A stretch of DNA of 64,000 bases from Flavobacteriales bacterium (GTDB taxonomy: Bacteria; Bacteroidota; Bacteroidia; Flavobacteriales_F; PHOS-HE28). The first letter of the stretch is position 1. Each line of letters opens with the position of its first letter. The position numbers were made by a program, and so were the translations under genes. Below the pieces are notes generated by a model. It had not been told where the DNA came from. It ran no database searches and saw only the letters and a program-made list of their open reading frames with translations. Shown here one piece after another: positions 45,240-55,138 of this stretch. The stretch is taken from contig JADJCX010000033.1 of assembly GCA_016703005.1 (NCBI GenBank), positions 297,767-361,766 on the forward strand, read 5' to 3'.

Positions 45240-45304
45240 TGTTCCAAAGGCTTTCGAGGGGAACCAAGGACACTAACCCACACTAGGGTTGAAGAGCCAG
45301 ATGT

Positions 45305-45589
45305 TCAAACCCCAGCAACTTTCGAGGATAAAAGCTCTCGTACTCCCATCGAGGTAAGTTTCTTTTGCCGGTTTGAAACTGCTCCAAGTACTGTTTCTAG
45401 GTCTTTCGGTGAATCAATGCCCAGCAACACTTTGACCCTATCGAAGTACGCCTTCGACACCGATCGAGCAAACACTTCAAATGCTCCACCGTAGTGTCCG
45501 ATGAATATCAGTGTGTCGGGCCACCAGCCCGAATAAGCATCCTTCGTATGCATTTCACTCCTCATGAAGAGGATAAAATCGGCTTGCAT
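45305..45589 (-). CDS. Hypothetical protein, possibly a remnant, in a low-GC segment
   Basis: 94 aa with no recognisable domain. Lies in AT-richer DNA (~48% GC) immediately beside the IS element. Confidence 0.3.
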   Translation of the reverse strand: MQADFILFMRSEMHTKDAYSGWWPDTLIFIGHYGGAFEVFARSVSKAYFDRVKVLLGIDSPKDLETVLGAVSNRQKKLTSMGVRELLSSKVAGV

Positions 45590-45653
45590 CAGGAACTGGA
45601 ATTCTATTCCTGAACTCGCTGCCCGTGTAAGCTTCCCCTAAAGTCGGGCCAGC

Positions 45654-46850
45654 GATAACTGGAGGTCTCAGGAGCATGTGGGTTAGAGTTGGATGGGCAC
45701 TGGCGGCCGGTAACCGAGTGCTTTGTGAGGTCGAAGATGGTTGTAATCGTACATCCATTCGGTGGTGCGCAAGCGAACCTCATCGAGGGTACGGAAGACG
45801 TATGCGCTGAGCACATCACGGCGCAGGGTTCCGTTGAGCCGTTCGATGTAAGCGTTTTGCGTGGGCTTGCCCGGTTGGATGAAGGTGAGGGTGATCTTTT
45901 GGAGCTTGCACCAGTGATCGAGTTTGGCGCTGATGAACTCCGGTCCATTGTCCACGCGGATCATGGTCGGTAGCGGACGATGTTCCTTGATCTGTTCAAG
46001 GGCACGTATCACGCGCTGAGCAGGCAGTGAGGTGTCCACCTCGATGGCCAGTACCTCGCGGTTGTAGTCGTCCAGGATATTGAGCAGTCGGTACGTGCGA
46101 CCGTCCCAGAGGCTGTCGTGCATGAAGTCGATGCTCCACACCTGATCAGGGGCTTGTGGTTGGAACAACGCCTGCTTCACGCGGGCAGGCAGGCGCTTCT
46201 TGGCCCTGCGCCGGATGTTCAGGCCCATGGCCGTGTACACCCGGTACACGCGCTTGAAGTTCCAGCGTTGACCCGTCAAACGCATGCGGTGATGGCTCTG
46301 CCACACGCCGATGGCCGGATGCCGCTGGGTGAGTTCGCCCAAGGCTTGGATGATCGCCGTGTCATCGGGTGGGTGCTTGAGGTACTGCGCGGTACTGCGA
46401 GCAAGGCCCACACAACGGCAAGCCTGCCGCTGTGTAAGTCCGTGTTCATTGCTCATCGCCTGCACGATTTCGCGCTTCTCGTCAGGCGCCCCACTTCTTT
46501 TCCACCACCTGCTTCAATGCATCGTGCATCATGCTCAGCTCGGCATACATGCGTTTGAGGCGTCCGTTCTCCTCCTGCAGTTCCTTCATCTGCTTGAGTT
46601 GGCTGGCGTCCAGACCACCGTACTTGGCCTTCCACTGGTAGAACGTGGCGTTGCTGATGCCGTGCTCGCGACAGATGTCGGCGACCTTGGCTCCAGCGTC
46701 ATGCTGCTTGAGCATCGAGACGATCTGATGCTCGGTGAACTTGCTTTTCCTCATGGCTACTACTTGTGTTGAAAGTAGCCCCTGACCGGTCAACGGGATT
46801 TTTCCCCAGGCCTGATGGGCCGGGAAAAATCCCGTTGACCTCCACTATCA
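45654..46850 (-). mobile_element. IS3-family insertion sequence (about 1.2 kb). orfA runs 46482-46754 and orfB (DDE integrase core) 45683-46465.
   Basis: orfA has an HTH region (MRKSKFTEHQIVSMLKQHDAGAKVADICREHGISNATFYQWKAKYGG). orfB has the rve/DDE core (...DNGPEFIS...[12 protein letters not shown]...). Imperfect terminal IRs about GATA(A)nTGGAGGTC at both ends. orfB overlaps orfA by about 33 nt but in the +1 rather than the usual -1 frame. Confidence 0.8.
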
Positions 46851-46872
46851 CATGGCCGAAGATTGGGGAAGC

Positions 46873-47973
46873 TTACACCGATCCTTTGCATATCTGCCCG
46901 CATAGAAAGTCGCTTGGCCTGGAGTCTTTGATTTCGATGCCGAAGGACTGCATCCTTCGATAAATGGTTTCGAAACCCACCATCGAAGGTTTGCCGTATT
47001 CAGCATTCACAGGTATATAGAATGGCTTGGTGAGAACATCGGCGGCTTCGCTGAAACGCTCATGCTTTATAAGGACCGCCAAGGAGAAAAGAAACAACTC
47101 ATGAATGAGAAATCTGTAGTTGTCAAACTCCCAGTCCTGCCAAGAATTCAAATTGGGTGACTTGTCCATATACGGAATGATGTCTTCAAAGAACCGATGA
47201 AGGCGATTAATGATTGCCTCACTCGGGTGATACTGGGCGATAGCCACGAAGAGATGAAGCATCTCGTTTCGTTGCGGAAGAAAGTCTCCAATGCTCGCTA
47301 CTACTGCCTCACCGAATTCTCCAGCCGGGTTCACTAATCTGATTCGCTCAAGGTTCTTGGCAAACGTTGTGCAGTACTCATCAAAGGCACCTTCAGCGTA
47401 GCTTTTATGGTCCCTTAGACCTTCCAGGCACCTTTTGAACAATAGAGAGGTGCCCAATGATGCATGCTCGCCCTCGTTCAAGAACGTGGGCATGGTACCT
47501 ATTTCGGGCTTCACATAAAGGGGTTTGTCAAAAATCCATCGGAGCAGCCGTTCAAGGTTGTCCGAGTACCGGTCCAATTCACTGAGGTCGATGTAGATTC
47601 TGGCCTTGTAGTATGTAGGAAGAAAGGGTTTGTCATTTGCGTCTTTATGGCTCACAACAGCAACGAACTTGTTTTGGTCTTGTCTGTCGTAAACTTCCTT
47701 AGAGATGATTTGCGTTTCAGTTCCAACACCACCCGATCGACCGTCCGCCTTACTCGCGTATTTCTCATCGCAGATAATAACCACCTTCTTAATGTCTGGA
47801 TTGGTGACCATTTGCTCCATGAAGGCCACCGCATCATGCCCTTCCCTCAAATCCCATTTGTCCAGAATCACATCCACTCCAGCCGACCGCAATTGAGTTG
47901 CAAGATCAATGACCCATTGTTCGTGATCCGGGCTGGACCAGCTGTATGAGATGAAGAGTTTTGGGGCGGACAT
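46873..47973 (-). CDS. TIR-domain protein with an uncharacterised ~230-aa C-terminal domain
   Basis: N-terminal TIR-like block KLFISYSWSSPDHEQWVIDLATQLRSAGVDVILDKWDLREGHDAVAFMEQMVTNPDIKKVVIICDEKYASKA. Low-GC (~45%) coding sequence. Start trimmed to MSAPKLF. Confidence 0.6.
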   Translation of the reverse strand: MSAPKLFISYSWSSPDHEQWVIDLATQLRSAGVDVILDKWDLREGHDAVAFMEQMVTNPDIKKVVIICDEKYASKADGRSGGVGTETQIISKEVYDRQDQNKFVAVVSHKDANDKPFLPTYYKARIYIDLSELDRYSDNLERLLRWIFDKPLYVKPEIGTMPTFLNEGEHASLGTSLLFKRCLEGLRDHKSYAEGAFDEYCTTFAKNLERIRLVNPAGEFGEAVVASIGDFLPQRNEMLHLFVAIAQYHPSEAIINRLHRFFEDIIPYMDKSPNLNSWQDWEFDNYRFLIHELFLFSLAVLIKHERFSEAADVLTKPFYIPVNAEYGKPSMVGFETIYRRMQSFGIEIKDSRPSDFLCGQICKGSV

Positions 47974-48142
47974 CCGATTATGAGTATGAGGCAAAGATGG
48001 CTCCCACTTGTCGCGTGATGGGCTGACGCTCGCCTTCGACTCGCTTAATTGCAAGTCAGCATTGCAGCGATTGGCTACATTCGCATCATGCGAGCTATGA
48101 CGCGGCGAATATGGATATGTGGCTAAGCCACTATCTCATTAT

Positions 48143-48216
48143 GGCCCCGTAGCTCAGTCGGTCAGAGCATCTGCCTTATACGCAGCCGGTCGCAGGTTCA
48201 AGTCCTGCCGGGGCTA
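48143..48216 (+). tRNA. tRNA with anticodon UAU (Ile-AUA decoding) on an ileX-like (tRNA-Ile2) backbone
   Basis: Cloverleaf: acceptor GGCCCCG/CGGGGCT, D-arm GCTCAGTCGGTCAGAGC, anticodon stem-loop TCTGC-CTTATAC-GCAGC, T-arm GCAGGTTCAAGTCCTGC, discriminator A, no encoded CCA. Near-identical architecture to E. coli ileX except the anticodon is TAT instead of CAT. Confidence 0.75.
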
Positions 48217-48348
48217 CTGATATTCCATCTCACCTTCATCACATGCACCCGCTCGCGCATTGCAGACGCTCGCCTTCGGCGAGTGTCCGAGCGGTGTACC
48301 AGCATGTGGTAAAGATCGGATACAAGATGAACTCTGGATATTAGAGCC

Positions 48349-48665: not shown

Positions 48666-49058
48666 TCAAGGCCTGTGGCCCGCCTTACCGATCCCCGTCG
48701 GCTGTATCGCGCTGGTCTCCACCATCAACACCACGGTCTTCTTGGGTGCGCGCGGGCGGTGCATTACGCCCTTGGTGATGGTGACACCCTGTTGGGGGTT
48801 CAGTTCGATGGTGCGGTCCTCGAGGTCTATGAGCAGTTGGCCTTCAAGCACCAGGAAGAACTCATCGTCGTTGTCGTGCTTGTGCCAGTGGAACTCGCCC
48901 TCCAGCATGCCCAAGCGCACCACGCTGTCGTTCACCTGGCTCAGGGTGCGGTTGGCCCACTTCTCCTTGGTGGCAGCCACAACAGCGGGAATGTCGATCT
49001 TCTCGAGGTGTGCGAACTGCACACCGAGGTCAATGTCGTAGGTGGTCTTGGGTTCCAT
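48666..49058 (-). CDS. Cupin-domain protein
   Basis: 130 aa. The two-His motif region (GEFHWHKHDNDDEFFLVLEGQLLIDL) and a later H are typical of the cupin_2 fold. Confidence 0.65.
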   Translation of the reverse strand: MEPKTTYDIDLGVQFAHLEKIDIPAVVAATKEKWANRTLSQVNDSVVRLGMLEGEFHWHKHDNDDEFFLVLEGQLLIDLEDRTIELNPQQGVTITKGVMHRPRAPKKTVVLMVETSAIQPTGIGKAGHRP

Positions 49059-49195: not shown

Positions 49196-49448
49196 GAAGC
49201 TGATAGAGACATGTTCAGCGCAGACATGGGCATGTTGAAGTTGAACAGAGACCTGTTGGCCACGAACAGGGACATGATCGCCGCTGAAAGAGACATGTCG
49301 GCGGCCGATAGAGACATGTTAGCCGCTGAAAGAGGCATGATAGCGGCTGACAGAGACATGTTAGCCGCTGAAAGAGGCATGTTAGCGGCCGACAGAGACA
49401 TGTTAGCCGCTGACAAGCATGTTGATCGCTGACATGTACATGTCAGCC
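49196..49448. repeat. Tandem array of about 11-12 21-bp repeats (alternating GCCGCTGAAAGAGGCATGTTA and GCGGCCGACAGAGACATGTTA) ending in a perfect 20-bp palindrome GCTGACATGTACATGTCAGC
   Basis: Direct reading of 49196-49448. The 21-bp period equals two helical turns. Every unit contains an ACATGT-like core. Both strands stay open in several frames, as expected for a period that is a multiple of 3. Confidence 0.85.
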
Positions 49449-49584: not shown

Positions 49585-50244
49585 GTGTTCCCTGCCACCC
49601 TAAATATCACTGTCTTCTGCGGCGCATTGCTGGTCGCTTGCGTCGTTGCTGCCCAGCCGCCGAAAGAGCCGGGGTCGTTCAGGCCACCCGACCTGGTGGA
49701 GATCGTGAAGCTGGATAAGACCATCAAGCTCGACATCCGCTACGCCACGAAGAACAATTTCCTGGGGCGACCGGTGTACAAACATGCACGGGCCTTTTTG
49801 CAGCGCCCGGCCGCCGAGGCACTGGTGCGCGTGCACCAAGCGCTGAAGGCGCAGGGCTTCGGGCTGCTGGTCTTCGATGGCTACCGGCCGTGGAGCGTTA
49901 CCAAGGTTTTTTGGGACAGCACACCCAACGACAAGAAGAGCTACGTGGCCGACCCCGCAGTAGGCTCGCGGCACAACCGCGGATGCGCGGTGGACCTCAC
50001 CTTGTTCGACCTCAAGACAGGTCGCGCTGTAACGATGCCCAGCGAATACGACGAGATGACGGAACGGTCGCATGCGGACCATTCCGGTGCAACGCCGGAG
50101 GCCACGCGCCTGCGCGATCTGCTCATCGCGGCCATGCAAGCGCAAGGCTTCACGGTCTTCGCCACCGAGTGGTGGCACTTCGACTACAAGGACTGGAAGG
50201 AGTATGCGATCCTGGATGTTCCGTTCAAGGAGATCGGGAAGTAG
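49585..50244 (+). CDS. ddpX: D-alanyl-D-alanine dipeptidase (M15 family, VanX/DdpX-like), secreted
   Basis: Signal peptide and M15D motifs (...SRHNRGCAVDLTLFD...EWWHFDY). Confidence 0.8.
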   Translation: MFPATLNITVFCGALLVACVVAAQPPKEPGSFRPPDLVEIVKLDKTIKLDIRYATKNNFLGRPVYKHARAFLQRPAAEALVRVHQALKAQGFGLLVFDGYRPWSVTKVFWDSTPNDKKSYVADPAVGSRHNRGCAVDLTLFDLKTGRAVTMPSEYDEMTERSHADHSGATPEATRLRDLLIAAMQAQGFTVFATEWWHFDYKDWKEYAILDVPFKEIGK

Positions 50245-50336
50245 ATGTCATTGGAATGTGAGTCGGAACCGCATAGGCCAAGAGCCGGGAGGCAACGCGC
50301 GTTCCGTCCTGCGTCTACTTTCGGCATTCTACCCCC

Positions 50337-51623
50337 ATGCGTGCACATACCCGTTCCTTCCTGCTATCCTGCGCTCTCGCATTCGCCCCGCTGGCACAGG
50401 CGCAGGACTTCTTCTGGGACTTCGAAGGAGCGAACGGCCTCGATGGATGGCACATGTATGATGGCAGTTCGATGCAGACGGGACCAGGTGCGGCCAGTGC
50501 GACCAGCGTGCGTTTGCAGAGCGGACCGCCCCTTAACAGCGGATCGTTCGATTCGGCCATGTTCTTCTACCATGTTGTGCCGTACGACCCTAACGTCTTT
50601 TACAACATTACAGTTGGGTGCATGACACTCGACCCCGATGTGTACCCGATGGTATACCTCGGTTGGCTCGATACGCTGACCCAGCCCGCATTCCTGAACG
50701 CCGCGAACACCAGCATGACCGTTTCGACGGGCCCCTCCAGCTGGGCCATCGCCGAATTGCTGGATGAGTATCCCATCACCGGAACGGGCGCGTACTGCAT
50801 CATCATTTCGGCTTCATCGTTGATCCCGGGCGAAGCCCTGTTCGACAACATTTCCGTTGAGATGATACCGCAGGGCTCGGCCATGCTCCGCGCGCCAAGG
50901 CTGTTCCTGGGCGGCAACTTCGATAGCGGCATCAACCGGATGGGCCACCATCTCAACGACCTGGGATTAGTGCCGGCCACGGAGCCATACACGGCCATGG
51001 GTTACCAGCAGATCGGCGGTGGTGGGGAGATGTGCACACCCTTTGTGATGGAACCGAGCTTCAACTTCAACGCCGTGGATTGGGTGCGCCTCGAATTGCG
51101 TTCGGCCTTGGACCCGACCGTGGTGGTGGCCACGCGGCAGCTCATGCTCACTTCACTCGGTCTTACGTGCGGCCCCAATGGGCAACTGAACCTGCACTTC
51201 GATCTGCCGGCCGGCAACTATTACGTGGCCGTGCGCCACCGGAACCATCTGGGTGCGATGACCGCCACGCCGGTGGCGCTGCCAAGTCCATTTCCATGGT
51301 GGGCGGTGGATTTCCGCTCGCCTTCGCTTGCCACATGGGGCAGCAATGCGCGCAAGGCGGTGGGGGCGAACATGGTGCTATGGGAAGGCGATGTCACAGG
51401 CGACCACTTGCTCAAGTATGTGGGTATGAACAACGACCGCGACCCCATTCTCGTGGCCATTGGTGCGTTGCCCATCGCTACCCTCACCGGTCAGTACCGC
51501 AAAGAGGATGTGACCATCGATGTCGTCGTGAAGTATGTCGGGGTGAACAACGACCGTGACCCCATCCTTGTGAATATCGGCGGTAATACGCCCAATGCCG
51601 TGCGCGTGGAGCAGGTGCCATAG
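50337..51623 (+). CDS. Secreted protein, paralog A of a novel family, with C-terminal dockerin-like Ca-binding repeats
   Basis: Signal peptide. Shares long blocks with 53834-55138 (FEGANGL.GW, EPYTAMGY.Q.GGGGE, VDWVR.ELRS..DPT..VATRQ, NYY.AVRHRNHLG.MTA.PV). Repeats of the form GD.TGD..LKYVG.NNDRDPILV.IG. Confidence 0.6.
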   Translation: MRAHTRSFLLSCALAFAPLAQAQDFFWDFEGANGLDGWHMYDGSSMQTGPGAASATSVRLQSGPPLNSGSFDSAMFFYHVVPYDPNVFYNITVGCMTLDPDVYPMVYLGWLDTLTQPAFLNAANTSMTVSTGPSSWAIAELLDEYPITGTGAYCIIISASSLIPGEALFDNISVEMIPQGSAMLRAPRLFLGGNFDSGINRMGHHLNDLGLVPATEPYTAMGYQQIGGGGEMCTPFVMEPSFNFNAVDWVRLELRSALDPTVVVATRQLMLTSLGLTCGPNGQLNLHFDLPAGNYYVAVRHRNHLGAMTATPVALPSPFPWWAVDFRSPSLATWGSNARKAVGANMVLWEGDVTGDHLLKYVGMNNDRDPILVAIGALPIATLTGQYRKEDVTIDVVVKYVGVNNDRDPILVNIGGNTPNAVRVEQVP

Positions 51624-51717
51624 GGGGTTACGAACTGGCGCGGGCCTTTCTAAGCGTCCATCGCAGAGTCGCTTGTGCGCGAGTCCTACGCATGAGGCCG
51701 CAGGGGCTCGCAGGCCG

Positions 51718-51820
51718 AGGGCTTCACCGTCTTCGCCACCGAGTGGTGGCACTTCGACCACAAGGACGGGAAGGAGTATGCGATCTTCGATGTGGAGTTC
51801 GGCAGGATCAAGGGTCAGTA
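51718..51820 (+). pseudogene. Fragment (~100 bp) of the ddpX 3' end
   Basis: ...GFTVFATEWWHFDHKDGKEYAIFDVEFGRIKGQ* is about 80% identical in DNA to 50140-50244. Confidence 0.7.
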
Positions 51821-51830
51821 GTTCCCCCGC

Positions 51831-53387
51831 CTATTCCTTCACTATGCGCAGGCAGGTCAAACCTTCATTGGAAGTCACCTGCAGGACGTAGGGTCCTGAA
51901 GGGAGAATACTCAGGTCAACAAGGGAGCCGCCAACGCGAAAGTGCCCAGTTTGCACTGTCGCACCCAAGGTGTTGATGACCACATAGACTGCGTTACTGC
52001 CTATGTCGCCGGTGATCCTGAAGACGCCGTTGCTCGGGTTCGGTGTGGCAGTGAGTCCCGGTGCTGGCAGTGATGGGTCCACCGCTGTGCTGAAATCCTC
52101 CTCACCGAGTTCAACAAGCCATACATCGCGCACGCCTATGAAGTCCTGGACGTCGCCATCATTCGATTGTGCATGCCCGGCCATCATGAAGTGGCCGTTG
52201 GGAAGTGCGACGATCGCCGAGCCGCCGTCAAAGTCGGTGCCGCCCATTGTTTTCTGCCACAGGAGATCCCCGAACGGGTCCAGACGTACAACCCAAGCAT
52301 CGGACCAGCCTTGGTTGCTGGTCACGTCGCCATCGGCAGAGCGTGTGTTACCGGTGAAAATGAACCCACCGTCATAGAGCTGGTCCATGTCGATCGGGGT
52401 GTCGAACAGAGAGCCACCGATACAATGCTGCCACTGCAGGTTGCCCAGTGAGTCCAGCTTCACGATCCAAGCGTCCTCATCGCCGTGGAGGCCGCTCACG
52501 TCGCCATCATTGGACGAGGTTCTCGCGGCGATCACATAGCCACCATCCGAGGTGAGCGCCAGATCGAACGGGTTTTCGGACCACGTGCCGCCAAAGGACT
52601 GCTCCCAGAGGATCGCACCGACGCTGTCCACCTTCACCAACCACACATCGTTGGCGCCGAGGTTCTGGGAAACGTCGCCATCGGAGGACAAAGAACTGGC
52701 CGCGAAGACATAGCCGCCGTCCATGGTCCTGGTGATGGACCAACCCACTTCGGCCAAGCTGCCGCCGTAGCACCGCTGCCATTCCAACCCGCCAGTGCTG
52801 TCGAGCTTCACCACCCATGCGTCGTCCGCACCGTGATTGCCGCTCACGTCGCCGTCGTTCGAGGTGGTGCGCGCTATCAGTATGCAGCCACCGTCCGGCG
52901 TGCCTTCAATGCACGCCACGGTCTCGTTGCTCGATCCACCGAGGTCGATGTTCCACTGTACGTTCCCACCGCTATCGAGCTTTACCACCCCGATGTCCGA
53001 GTAAAGCACCGGATACGGCGTGATGTACCCGGTAAGGAAGTAACCACCGTCAGCGGTTGGTGCGAGACCATGGGCATCATCCCAACTAACACCGCCCAGC
53101 GTTTGCTGCCATAGCAGCGTTCCGGTGCTATCGATCTTGAATACCCACATGTCGTGATCGCCGTTCTGCCCCGAAATGTCGCCATCGACCGAGGTTGTGA
53201 ACCCGGAGACAACGAAGCCGTTGTCAGCCGTGCGCAGGAGGTTGCGCCCCATCTCGTCATGCGATCCTCCATAGGTCTCCTGCCATACAATGGGCGGTGC
53301 TATCTGGCCGATGATGGTGCCGCGCAACACAAGAACCGCAACAGGGATGATCGTCCAACGAAAGAAGCGGGCGACTGAGCTTTGCAT
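51831..53387 (-). CDS. Secreted beta-propeller-repeat protein with a T9SS type A C-terminal sorting domain
   Basis: About 8 repeats of about 50 aa (DGGY...G.T.S.DGDVSGNHG.DDAWVVKLDS.G.L.WQ...GG) and a Por-secretion tail (...GPYVLQVTSNEGLTCLRIVKE). Confidence 0.7.
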   Translation of the reverse strand: MQSSVARFFRWTIIPVAVLVLRGTIIGQIAPPIVWQETYGGSHDEMGRNLLRTADNGFVVSGFTTSVDGDISGQNGDHDMWVFKIDSTGTLLWQQTLGGVSWDDAHGLAPTADGGYFLTGYITPYPVLYSDIGVVKLDSGGNVQWNIDLGGSSNETVACIEGTPDGGCILIARTTSNDGDVSGNHGADDAWVVKLDSTGGLEWQRCYGGSLAEVGWSITRTMDGGYVFAASSLSSDGDVSQNLGANDVWLVKVDSVGAILWEQSFGGTWSENPFDLALTSDGGYVIAARTSSNDGDVSGLHGDEDAWIVKLDSLGNLQWQHCIGGSLFDTPIDMDQLYDGGFIFTGNTRSADGDVTSNQGWSDAWVVRLDPFGDLLWQKTMGGTDFDGGSAIVALPNGHFMMAGHAQSNDGDVQDFIGVRDVWLVELGEEDFSTAVDPSLPAPGLTATPNPSNGVFRITGDIGSNAVYVVINTLGATVQTGHFRVGGSLVDLSILPSGPYVLQVTSNEGLTCLRIVKE

Positions 53388-53439
53388 GATGCAATGTAAA
53401 CCTCCTTCCATAGGCCCAAAGCGCTCGAGGCGGAACAGT

Positions 53440-53722
53440 TGTCCGCGCGGCACAACCGCGGCTGCGCGGTGGATCTCACACTCTTCGACCTCAAGACCGG
53501 TCAGGCCGTGACGATGCCAGCGAACACGATGAGATGAACGAACGGTCCTACCCGACCTATTCAGGTGCTGCTCCGGAAGCCACGCGCATGCGCGATCTGC
53601 TGATCGCGGCGATGCAGGCGGAGGGCTTCACGGTCTTCGCCACCGAGTGGTGGCACTTCGACTATAAGGACTGGAAGGAGTATGCGATCTTGGATCTACC
53701 GTTCAAGGAGATCGGGAAGTAG
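53440..53722 (+). pseudogene. Fragment (~280 bp) of the ddpX 3' half, frameshifted
   Basis: Aligns to ddpX from ...HNRGCAVDLTLFDLKTG to the stop. A 1-nt deletion lies near 53518. The last 62 codons remain open as ORF 53534-53722. Confidence 0.75.
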
Positions 53723-53833
53723 TGGGCCATAGCTGGTGAGGTGGCGGCCTTGGCACGGTAGTCCTGATCCATCGGACCACAAGGCAACACTTCGCCGCAT
53801 ACCCCGTCTATCCGGTACATCATTTCCCTGCGC

Positions 53834-55138
53834 ATGCTATCCCAGTTGGTTCGTTGTGCCTCGGTAGGCATTTTTGTCATCGTCGGGAACACGGCTGCCT
53901 CGCAGACCTACAGCTTCAATTTCGAGGGTGCGAACGGCCTTTCGGGTTGGGTGCAGAACGACGGCCAACCCATTGGCACGGGGGCAGGTGCAAGCGGTAG
54001 CACGGCGTTGTCCATTTCCGTGGACCAGGTCAACTGGGACCGTCGTGTTTACCATCCCATTCCGTTCGACCCGACCAAGGTCTATCGGTACTCGGCCTGG
54101 ACGAAAGTGGGGCAACTCTCGACTACCACATCGGTAAGGCTCGCGTGGGTCGACTTCAGCACCGGACAGCGCATCTACACCGATACCTACTATCTGAACG
54201 GAAATTATGGCGCATGGCGGCCAGGGGGTATCCCGCCTCATCTCATCCCGACGGCCGACTTCTCGTCGAACCCGAACGCACAGTTCTGCATCGTGCTCGA
54301 AGCATTCGATGGTCTTACCGGCATCGCATGGTTCGATGATGTGGTGGTGACGATGAGCGACGTTTCCTCCACTGCGTTCATCAGTGCGCTTGTGATGTTG
54401 GGCGGTACGTACACCAACGGCTACATGCCTGCCAACCTGCGCTTGCAGAACCTGCTGCCTGTGCTGGAACCGTACACCGCGTTGGGCCATGTGCAAGTGG
54501 GTGGTGGCGGTGGCGAAACGGCGCCGGAAGCATGGTGGAACTTCAACAACCTGGACGGGCCGGTGGATTGGGTGCGGGTTGAATTGCGCTCTCCGATCGA
54601 CCCGACCATCATCGTGGCCACGCGGCAAGGGCTGGTGAGCAGCATCGGCTCGATCACCGAGGTGGACGGCGGCAGTGCCCTTGGTTTCAGTGTTGCACCG
54701 GGCAATTATTACCTGGCGGTGCGGCACCGCAACCACCTCGGGTGCATGACCGCCTCGCCGGTTTTCGTGCAAGGTGCCATCACGGTTCCGTGGTCGGCTT
54801 ATGGTTTCGTGGACTTCACTGCGGCCGCTACCCCTGTTTGGGGGACCGATGCGCGGAAGCACGGTGACAACACTTACAACTACAAGGTGCTATGGCCCGG
54901 TGACACCAATGGCGATGGTGTGGTGAAGTACACCGGTGCCAACAATGACCGCGATCCCATTCTGCAAGCGATCGGCGGCGTCCTGCCGACCAATACGTTG
55001 CCCAGCGTTTACAACATACATGACGTGGGCATGGACGGCACGGTGAAATACACCGGGTCCTTCAACGACCGCGATCCGATCCTGCAGACCATCGGAGGTG
55101 TTATTCCCACGTTGACGCGCGCGGCGCAGTTGCCTTGA
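53834..55138 (+). CDS. Secreted protein, paralog C of the novel family, with dockerin-like repeats
   Basis: Signal peptide. Conserved blocks shared with 50337-51623. Repeats DTNGDGVVKYTGANNDRDPILQAIGG and GMDGTVKYTGSFNDRDPILQTIGG. Confidence 0.6.
   Translation: MLSQLVRCASVGIFVIVGNTAASQTYSFNFEGANGLSGWVQNDGQPIGTGAGASGSTALSISVDQVNWDRRVYHPIPFDPTKVYRYSAWTKVGQLSTTTSVRLAWVDFSTGQRIYTDTYYLNGNYGAWRPGGIPPHLIPTADFSSNPNAQFCIVLEAFDGLTGIAWFDDVVVTMSDVSSTAFISALVMLGGTYTNGYMPANLRLQNLLPVLEPYTALGHVQVGGGGGETAPEAWWNFNNLDGPVDWVRVELRSPIDPTIIVATRQGLVSSIGSITEVDGGSALGFSVAPGNYYLAVRHRNHLGCMTASPVFVQGAITVPWSAYGFVDFTAAATPVWGTDARKHGDNTYNYKVLWPGDTNGDGVVKYTGANNDRDPILQAIGGVLPTNTLPSVYNIHDVGMDGTVKYTGSFNDRDPILQTIGGVIPTLTRAAQLP

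Follow-up and report, generated by a model that had tools for sequence, protein, structure and literature searches.

Is the 366-codon open reading frame (ORF) on the minus strand at positions 46873-47973 of a Flavobacteriales bacterium contig fragment a live anti-phage effector, one half of a larger defence system, or the remnant of a gene of another kind? The fragment (64,000 nt; contig JADJCX010000033.1 of assembly GCA_016703005.1, positions 297,767 to 361,766) is referred to here as the window, and all coordinates are given within it. The ORF opens with an ATG at 47973 and closes with a TAA at 46873-46875, as the initial annotation described. That annotation proposed a TIR-domain protein, acting either as a stand-alone NADase-type effector or as part of a system split by an insertion sequence (IS) of the IS3 family, with a 94-amino acid (aa) ORF beyond the IS as the possible severed partner. 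We conclude, with a probability of roughly 90%, that the locus as a whole (45283-47973, minus strand) is a horizontally acquired, now inactivated copy of bSEFIR, a single-gene anti-phage defence system (Millman et al., 2022 preprint). Our own computations cover the family identity, the architecture of the gene, the limits of the IS, the indels and the lack of a conserved partner; NAD+ depletion and phage defence are taken from the literature.

On sequence, the locus is a member of this already known family rather than a new system. The PADLOC model for bSEFIR (PDLC03957) matches the 366-aa ORF over residues 1-338 with E=5.2e-101, and matches the protein repaired as described below over residues 1-471 with E=1.8e-115, covering profile positions 35-379 of 412. 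A protein database search returned 3767 homologues at E<=1e-5; among the best 120, which are 60-67% identical to the ORF, 116 are 471-485 aa long, mostly 478 aa. The C-terminal 230 or so residues, which had been thought to resemble nothing recognizable, are the conserved C-terminal domain of bSEFIR, a domain with thousands of homologues. When a full-length model was searched against PDB folds, practically all matches were limited to a stretch as long as the N-terminal domain, and no solved structural relative of the C-terminal helical domain was found. NCBIfam has no model for the family, and a literature search for the word "bSEFIR" gave no match. In the original description, homologues were found in 460 genomes from more than 20 phyla, and the protein of Bacillus sp. 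NIO-1130 protected against phage phi29; protection was abolished by the substitution D40A, which removes a conserved aspartate needed for SEFIR-SEFIR interaction (Millman et al., 2022 preprint). Later papers describe depletion of NAD+ by the N-terminal SEFIR domain of bSEFIR, yielding ADP-ribose and nicotinamide, and a phage pathway, NARP1, that counters this depletion.

The N-terminal domain had been read as a TIR fold. At the level of the STIR clan this reading holds, and the modelled structure places the domain specifically with SEFIR. Pfam scores are close: SEFIR (PF08357) matches residues 5-136 with 66.6 bits (E=3.8e-18), above its gathering cut-off, and TIR_2 (PF13676) matches residues 7-144 with 65.9 bits (E=6.3e-18; cut-off 28). 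The SEFIR score is thus at least as high as the TIR score, as Millman et al. ask of a bSEFIR protein, by a small margin; the TIR_2 model is very broad, and SEFIR fits better structurally. The only sequence matches among solved structures are to BcSEFIR (5Y8E/5Y8F; E=7.6e-35, residues 4-156), with long identical blocks. For structural comparison we modelled P0001, a full-length homologue 66% identical to our ORF, using an alignment of 34 sequences (mean predicted local distance difference test score 78). Foldseek searches of the PDB with this model, a check that had been proposed for the N-terminal domain, ranked BcSEFIR first, followed by the SEFIR domain of Act1 and then by the TIR domains of TIR-STING and SPARTA; SEFIR outranks TIR in every structural measure applied. 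We therefore assign the domain to SEFIR, the sister of TIR, rather than to canonical TIR, because of the sequence match to BcSEFIR and the Foldseek ranking. In the family alignment, E53, D69 and E86 are invariant acidic residues and candidates for the position of the catalytic glutamate. D34, D38 and D47 are also invariant, and D41 nearly so (VDVILDKWDL..GHD), numbered by the family alignment rather than by the NIO-1130 protein with its D40.

The end of the ORF is a product of transposition. An IS3-family element is indeed present, but the gap of 23 nt that had been placed between the stop codon and the element does not exist: the TAA forms bases 3-5 of the left terminal repeat of the element. 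The ORF end was therefore made by the insertion, and the IS interrupts the gene. The element has the features expected of the IS3 family, namely an orfA with an HTH_Tnp_1 domain, an orfB with rve and rve_3 domains, terminal inverted repeats ending TG...CA, and a 3-bp target-site duplication, and its distant blastn matches are annotated "IS3 family transposase". The inverted repeats are imperfect; the tool called 33 nt at 76% complementarity, and visual inspection extends them to about 40 nt. Both open with the 13-mer TGTAAGCTTCCCC, the left copy starting at 46877; the window has exactly two occurrences of it, one per IS end and in inverted orientation, where 0.08 would be expected by chance. 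Just upstream of orfA, the left IS end could also form a hairpin, from two perfectly complementary 19-nt arms separated by 15 nt (46788-46840; GGTCAACGGGATTTTTCCC / GGGAAAAATCCCGTTGACC).

Three 1-nt indels accompany the insertion (Table 1). Homology to the family ends at residue 344 of the 366-aa ORF, the last 21 or so residues of which are out of the family frame. At the other end, the ATG at 47973 agrees with the family start, M[ST]APKLFISYSW. A longer, TTG-initiated ORF of 393 aa was considered as the true gene and dropped, since every homologue starts at the position of this ATG, with M[ST]APKLF.

Table 1. Features of the interrupted bSEFIR gene and of the IS within it (window coordinates).
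Feature	Position	Strand	Evidence or remark
bSEFIR pseudogene, codons 1-344, single frame	46942..47973	-	tblastn of P0001: residues 1-344, 66% identity, E=8e-167
N-terminal SEFIR domain (aa 4-156), putative NADase module	47506..47964	-	
Frameshift 1: 1-nt deletion, family codon 345 (TTC GG- CAT)	46940..46941	-	frame 0 to frame 2 relative to homologues
Family codons 346-361 (HRNQRLQAKRLSMRAD), second frame only	46892..46939	-	homologue motif HRNxRLxLRRLSLRAD
Frameshift 2: 5 nt against 6 in homologues (1-nt deletion), family codons ~362-363	46887..46891	-	
K-D-R, family codons 364-366, third frame	46878..46886	-	last codon CGG is the left copy of the target-site duplication
IS insertion, directly after CGG (Arg), family codon 366	after 46878	-	
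IS3-family element, 1252 bp	45626..46877	-	inverted repeats, Pfam, blastn
IS orfA	46482-46754	-	HTH_Tnp_1 1e-23
IS orfB (DDE), overlapping orfA	45683-46465	-	rve 1.7e-20, rve_3 2.2e-25
Right copy of 3-bp target-site duplication CGG	45623..45625	-	left copy at 46878-46880
Family codons 367 to ~445	45380..45622	-	tblastn residues 366-455, 54% identity, E=4e-31
Frameshift 3: 1-nt insertion, family codon ~446	45379	-	
Family codons ~446-478 (FQTGKRNLPRWEYESFYPRKLLGFEHLALQP) and ancestral stop TAG (45283-45285, codon 479)	45283..45378	-	

We repaired the gene in silico by removing the IS and one copy of the CGG duplication and then aligning the reading frames to homologues. Three 478-aa homologues align collinearly with this reconstruction over residues 1-478, across several frames, and the repaired protein is exactly 478 aa long, the length typical of the family. 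It is 59-64% identical to 478-aa homologues over its full length and keeps every invariant column of the family, also beyond the frameshifts. Retention of the invariant residues over all 478 aa suggests that this copy was inactivated recently. The 94-aa ORF (45305-45589, minus strand) does share the orientation of the 366-aa ORF beyond the IS, but we identify it as the severed C-terminus of the same gene and not as a partner, since it aligns with positions 326-369 of the PADLOC bSEFIR profile and, in collinear order, with residues 366-455 of the 478-aa homologues; its first 70 residues are in the family frame and its last 24, past the +1 frameshift at 45379, are not. Both halves of the gene have an atypically low GC content (0.478 and 0.476, compared with 0.58 for the IS and 0.589 for the window), which we count in favour of a foreign origin. 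The single intact ORF expected of a functional bSEFIR member is absent here, broken by the IS and by the indels at 46940/46941, 46887-46891 and 45379, and the IS insertion by itself suffices to make the gene a pseudogene. Truncation at residue 344 costs about 133 residues, over 30 of them at invariant positions such as R347, R350, R366, D381, F382, R387, W400 and F414-R419, and the 366-aa remnant is presumably non-functional. An exact lookup found no identical sequence on record for the 366-aa product. Neither an IS-free allele, sought in metagenome contigs by the reconstructed 24-nt junction, nor a close relative, sought by protein-seeded scans, was found; the best matches in genomes are 62-68% identical, and the best in metagenomes 66% identical, or 77-78% identical over N-terminal segments of 98-188 aa.

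Three considerations weigh against an inactivated bSEFIR copy as we describe it. The first is that any biochemical activity of the 478-aa clade would be carried over by analogy from the experimentally validated Bacillus sp. NIO-1130 protein. The second is that no PADLOC match was found in 12 flanking proteins, which reach about 9 kb towards lower coordinates and 11 kb in the opposite direction; with no defence genes within about 10 kb, a defence-island context, statistically a property of the family, is absent here. The third is that the 1-nt indels could in principle be assembly errors, which we consider unlikely on the assembled sequence rather than on reads. If all three were sequencing or assembly artefacts, only the IS insertion would be real and the gene would have suffered a single, very recent inactivation. 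The perfect target-site duplication and the retention of all invariant residues past the frameshifts are what such a history would leave. However, all three indels fall outside homopolymers of 4 or more bases (their contexts are TTCGGCATC, GATATGCAAAGG and GGAGCAGTTTC) and 88% of the window, which is dense in long intact ORFs, is covered by them, so assembly error is improbable; three errors within about 0.4 kb of gene sequence would also be an odd cluster. We regard a history with the IS as the only true lesion as unlikely.

The remnant might instead be a working protein. A truncated product of 366 aa, with the SEFIR domain and about 200 aa of the helical domain, could act as an effector or regulator, for example as a selected short isoform, and its first 344 codons are indeed intact with all invariant residues. 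Moreover, codon 345 is broken in three lineages, apparently by three mutational mechanisms: by frameshift 1 here; by a GAA/GAT-to-TAA-type nonsense codon in P0050, a homologue from metagenome contigs (L163/L164); and by a probable insertion in Aeromonas veronii (P0116; L161/L162), where homology ends at codon 345 and a weak DDE_3 transposase-like ORF lies at the contig end. However, since homology to our query ends at residue 344, hit ranking favours alleles cut at that point, and the coincidence at codon 345 may be due to this bias or to chance. A census of 160 independently sampled genome and metagenome loci (L001-L160) is less biased in this respect. An intact single-frame bSEFIR gene is present in 128 of the 160, and in about 12-16 (roughly 8-10%) the gene has stops or frameshifts that cannot be put down to the end of a contig; the stops in disrupted loci are scattered (codons 12, 20, 37, 88, 127, 141, 200 and others), with no excess at 345. 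The only four shorter proteins among the best 120 homologues (344-427 aa) look truncated rather than native: in two of them the shortening goes back to an interrupted gene or a stop codon, and the remaining two end in sequence unlike the family consensus. Given also the invariant positions lost, we consider a functional 366-aa product very unlikely, and we give slightly less credence still to the idea that codon 345 is a recurrent break point and a SEFIR protein of about 345 aa a selected product. Were it true, the short form might be a detoxified, dominant-negative or decoy version of a costly NADase. Elsewhere in the census, one locus (L156) is heavily degraded, and two (L132 and L143) have in common both a frameshift and a stop at codon 88.

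The search for partner genes used 80 loci from species-representative genomes, 44-68% identical to the query, in which all ORFs within 6 kb were clustered all-against-all. These loci span Pseudomonadota, Bacteroidota, Acidobacteriota, Nitrospirota, Chloroflexota, Planctomycetota, Patescibacteria, Bacillota and the archaeon Methanoperedens. No conserved neighbour of bSEFIR emerged: the largest cross-locus clusters occur in 10 of the 80 loci, at variable distance and on either side, and we therefore conclude that there is no partner gene. Consistent with the initial annotation, no ThsA-like, CBASS or Pycsar partner is adjacent to the gene; no ThsA, CD-NTase or cyclase partner was found in the window, and none is conserved in the homologous loci. 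The nearest neighbours in 44 loci include scattered defence genes (DRT UG5-nitrilase, QatA, GajA, dCTPase, SoFic, PD-T4-6 and three TIR_2 proteins) as well as integrases, transposases and housekeeping genes. Comparison with homologous loci, which had been suggested as a means of recovering the original downstream gene, shows one continuous ORF in 128 of 160 loci and, in the 80 clustered loci, no conserved neighbour. That the IS split a two-gene defence system, with the nearby and co-oriented 94-aa ORF as the severed partner, has next to no probability in view of the collinearity of that ORF with single 478-aa proteins, the continuous ORF in most loci and the lack of a conserved neighbour.

Returning to the inactivated bSEFIR copy, we propose that its intact ancestor of about 478 aa would have sensed phage infection, presumably through the conserved, all-helical C-terminal domain, whereupon the SEFIR domain would have cleaved NAD+ to ADP-ribose and nicotinamide, with abortive infection or growth arrest as the likely outcome. 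Four lesions would have ended this activity: the IS3-family element after codon 366 and the 1-nt indels at codons 345, ~363 and ~446. A stand-alone NADase-type anti-phage effector is hence an apt description of the kind of family to which the gene belongs, as known from the literature on bSEFIR, but not of the gene itself, which is a pseudogene and not live. The correct label is a bSEFIR pseudogene interrupted by an IS3-family element, rather than a live TIR effector and a hypothetical 94-aa protein. The locus is a further example of the rapid gain and loss of costly abortive-infection genes. Its significance beyond annotation is small.

The neighbours of the pseudogene in the window encode a 2-oxoacid dehydrogenase E1 component, BatA-like and WG-repeat proteins, a cupin, an M15 dipeptidase and type IX secretion system (T9SS) cargo proteins. 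A tRNA-Ile(TAT) gene lies at 48143-48217 on the plus strand, 170 nt upstream of the bSEFIR start. The anticodon TAT is unusual for bacterial tRNA-Ile, since in most bacteria AUA is read by a CAT tRNA that carries a lysidine modification. That the gene integrated at the 3' end of the tRNA gene was considered and is unsupported: bSEFIR is located 5' of tRNA-Ile, and no integrase was found. A 17-nt direct repeat, GC(T/A)GACGCTCGCCTTCG, at 48022-48038 and 48262-48278, brackets the tRNA gene. Further along, the gap between the cupin gene (48666-49058, minus strand) and the M15 dipeptidase gene (49585-50244, plus strand) contains, at 49199-49434, a 21-nt unit (similar to AGAGACATGTTAGCCGCTGA) repeated in tandem about 10 times with 74-79% matches. 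A segmental duplication at 49585-55138 has left three copies of the 3' end of this M15 D-Ala-D-Ala dipeptidase gene, one in the full gene and two as fragments at 51710-51800 and 53446-53722 (86-89% identity). Genes for paralogous proteins of about 430 aa (50337-51623 and 53834-55138) follow the full M15 gene and the 53446-53722 fragment; neither protein has a Pfam or PADLOC match, and the one encoded at 50337-51623 has no NCBIfam match. A 540-aa protein (51831-53453, minus strand) is encoded with four 174-nt internal repeats, and its C-terminus gives a borderline match to the T9SS sorting domain Por_Secre_tail (26.0 bits, cut-off 27). Together with the BatA-like and WG-repeat neighbours, this protein speaks for a host from the Bacteroidota.

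How does this locus compare with known systems? The nearest annotated plasmid-borne IS3 elements share only 66-68% nucleotide identity with the IS described here. The TIR NADases (AbTIR, SPARTA TIR-APAZ, TIR-STING and TIR-SAVED) and SARM1 make the same products as bSEFIR, ADP-ribose and nicotinamide, according to the literature; unlike the TIR NADases of bacterial immunity, the locus is without a ThsA-, CBASS- or Pycsar-type signalling partner. Eukaryotic SEFIR proteins (IL-17RA, IL-17RB and Act1/TRAF3IP2) are signalling adaptors whose SEFIR domains assemble with one another, and NADase activity is not reported for them; the sequence identity is 12-19%. BcSEFIR, from Bacillus cereus, is the closest solved structure by sequence, and its crystals cover the SEFIR domain alone (Yang et al., 2018). 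Compared with bSEFIR as described, the copy in the window is a pseudogene, with an IS3 insertion and three frameshifts; it belongs to a very uniform clade of 478-aa proteins, at 59-64% full-length identity to its nearest database relatives; and it stands by itself, surrounded by housekeeping genes and not by a defence island. What the locus and its family share with bSEFIR (Millman et al., 2022 preprint) is an N-terminal SEFIR domain joined to a conserved C-terminal domain of unknown function, an end-to-end profile match, organization as a single gene without a conserved partner, and a patchy spread over many phyla, archaea included.
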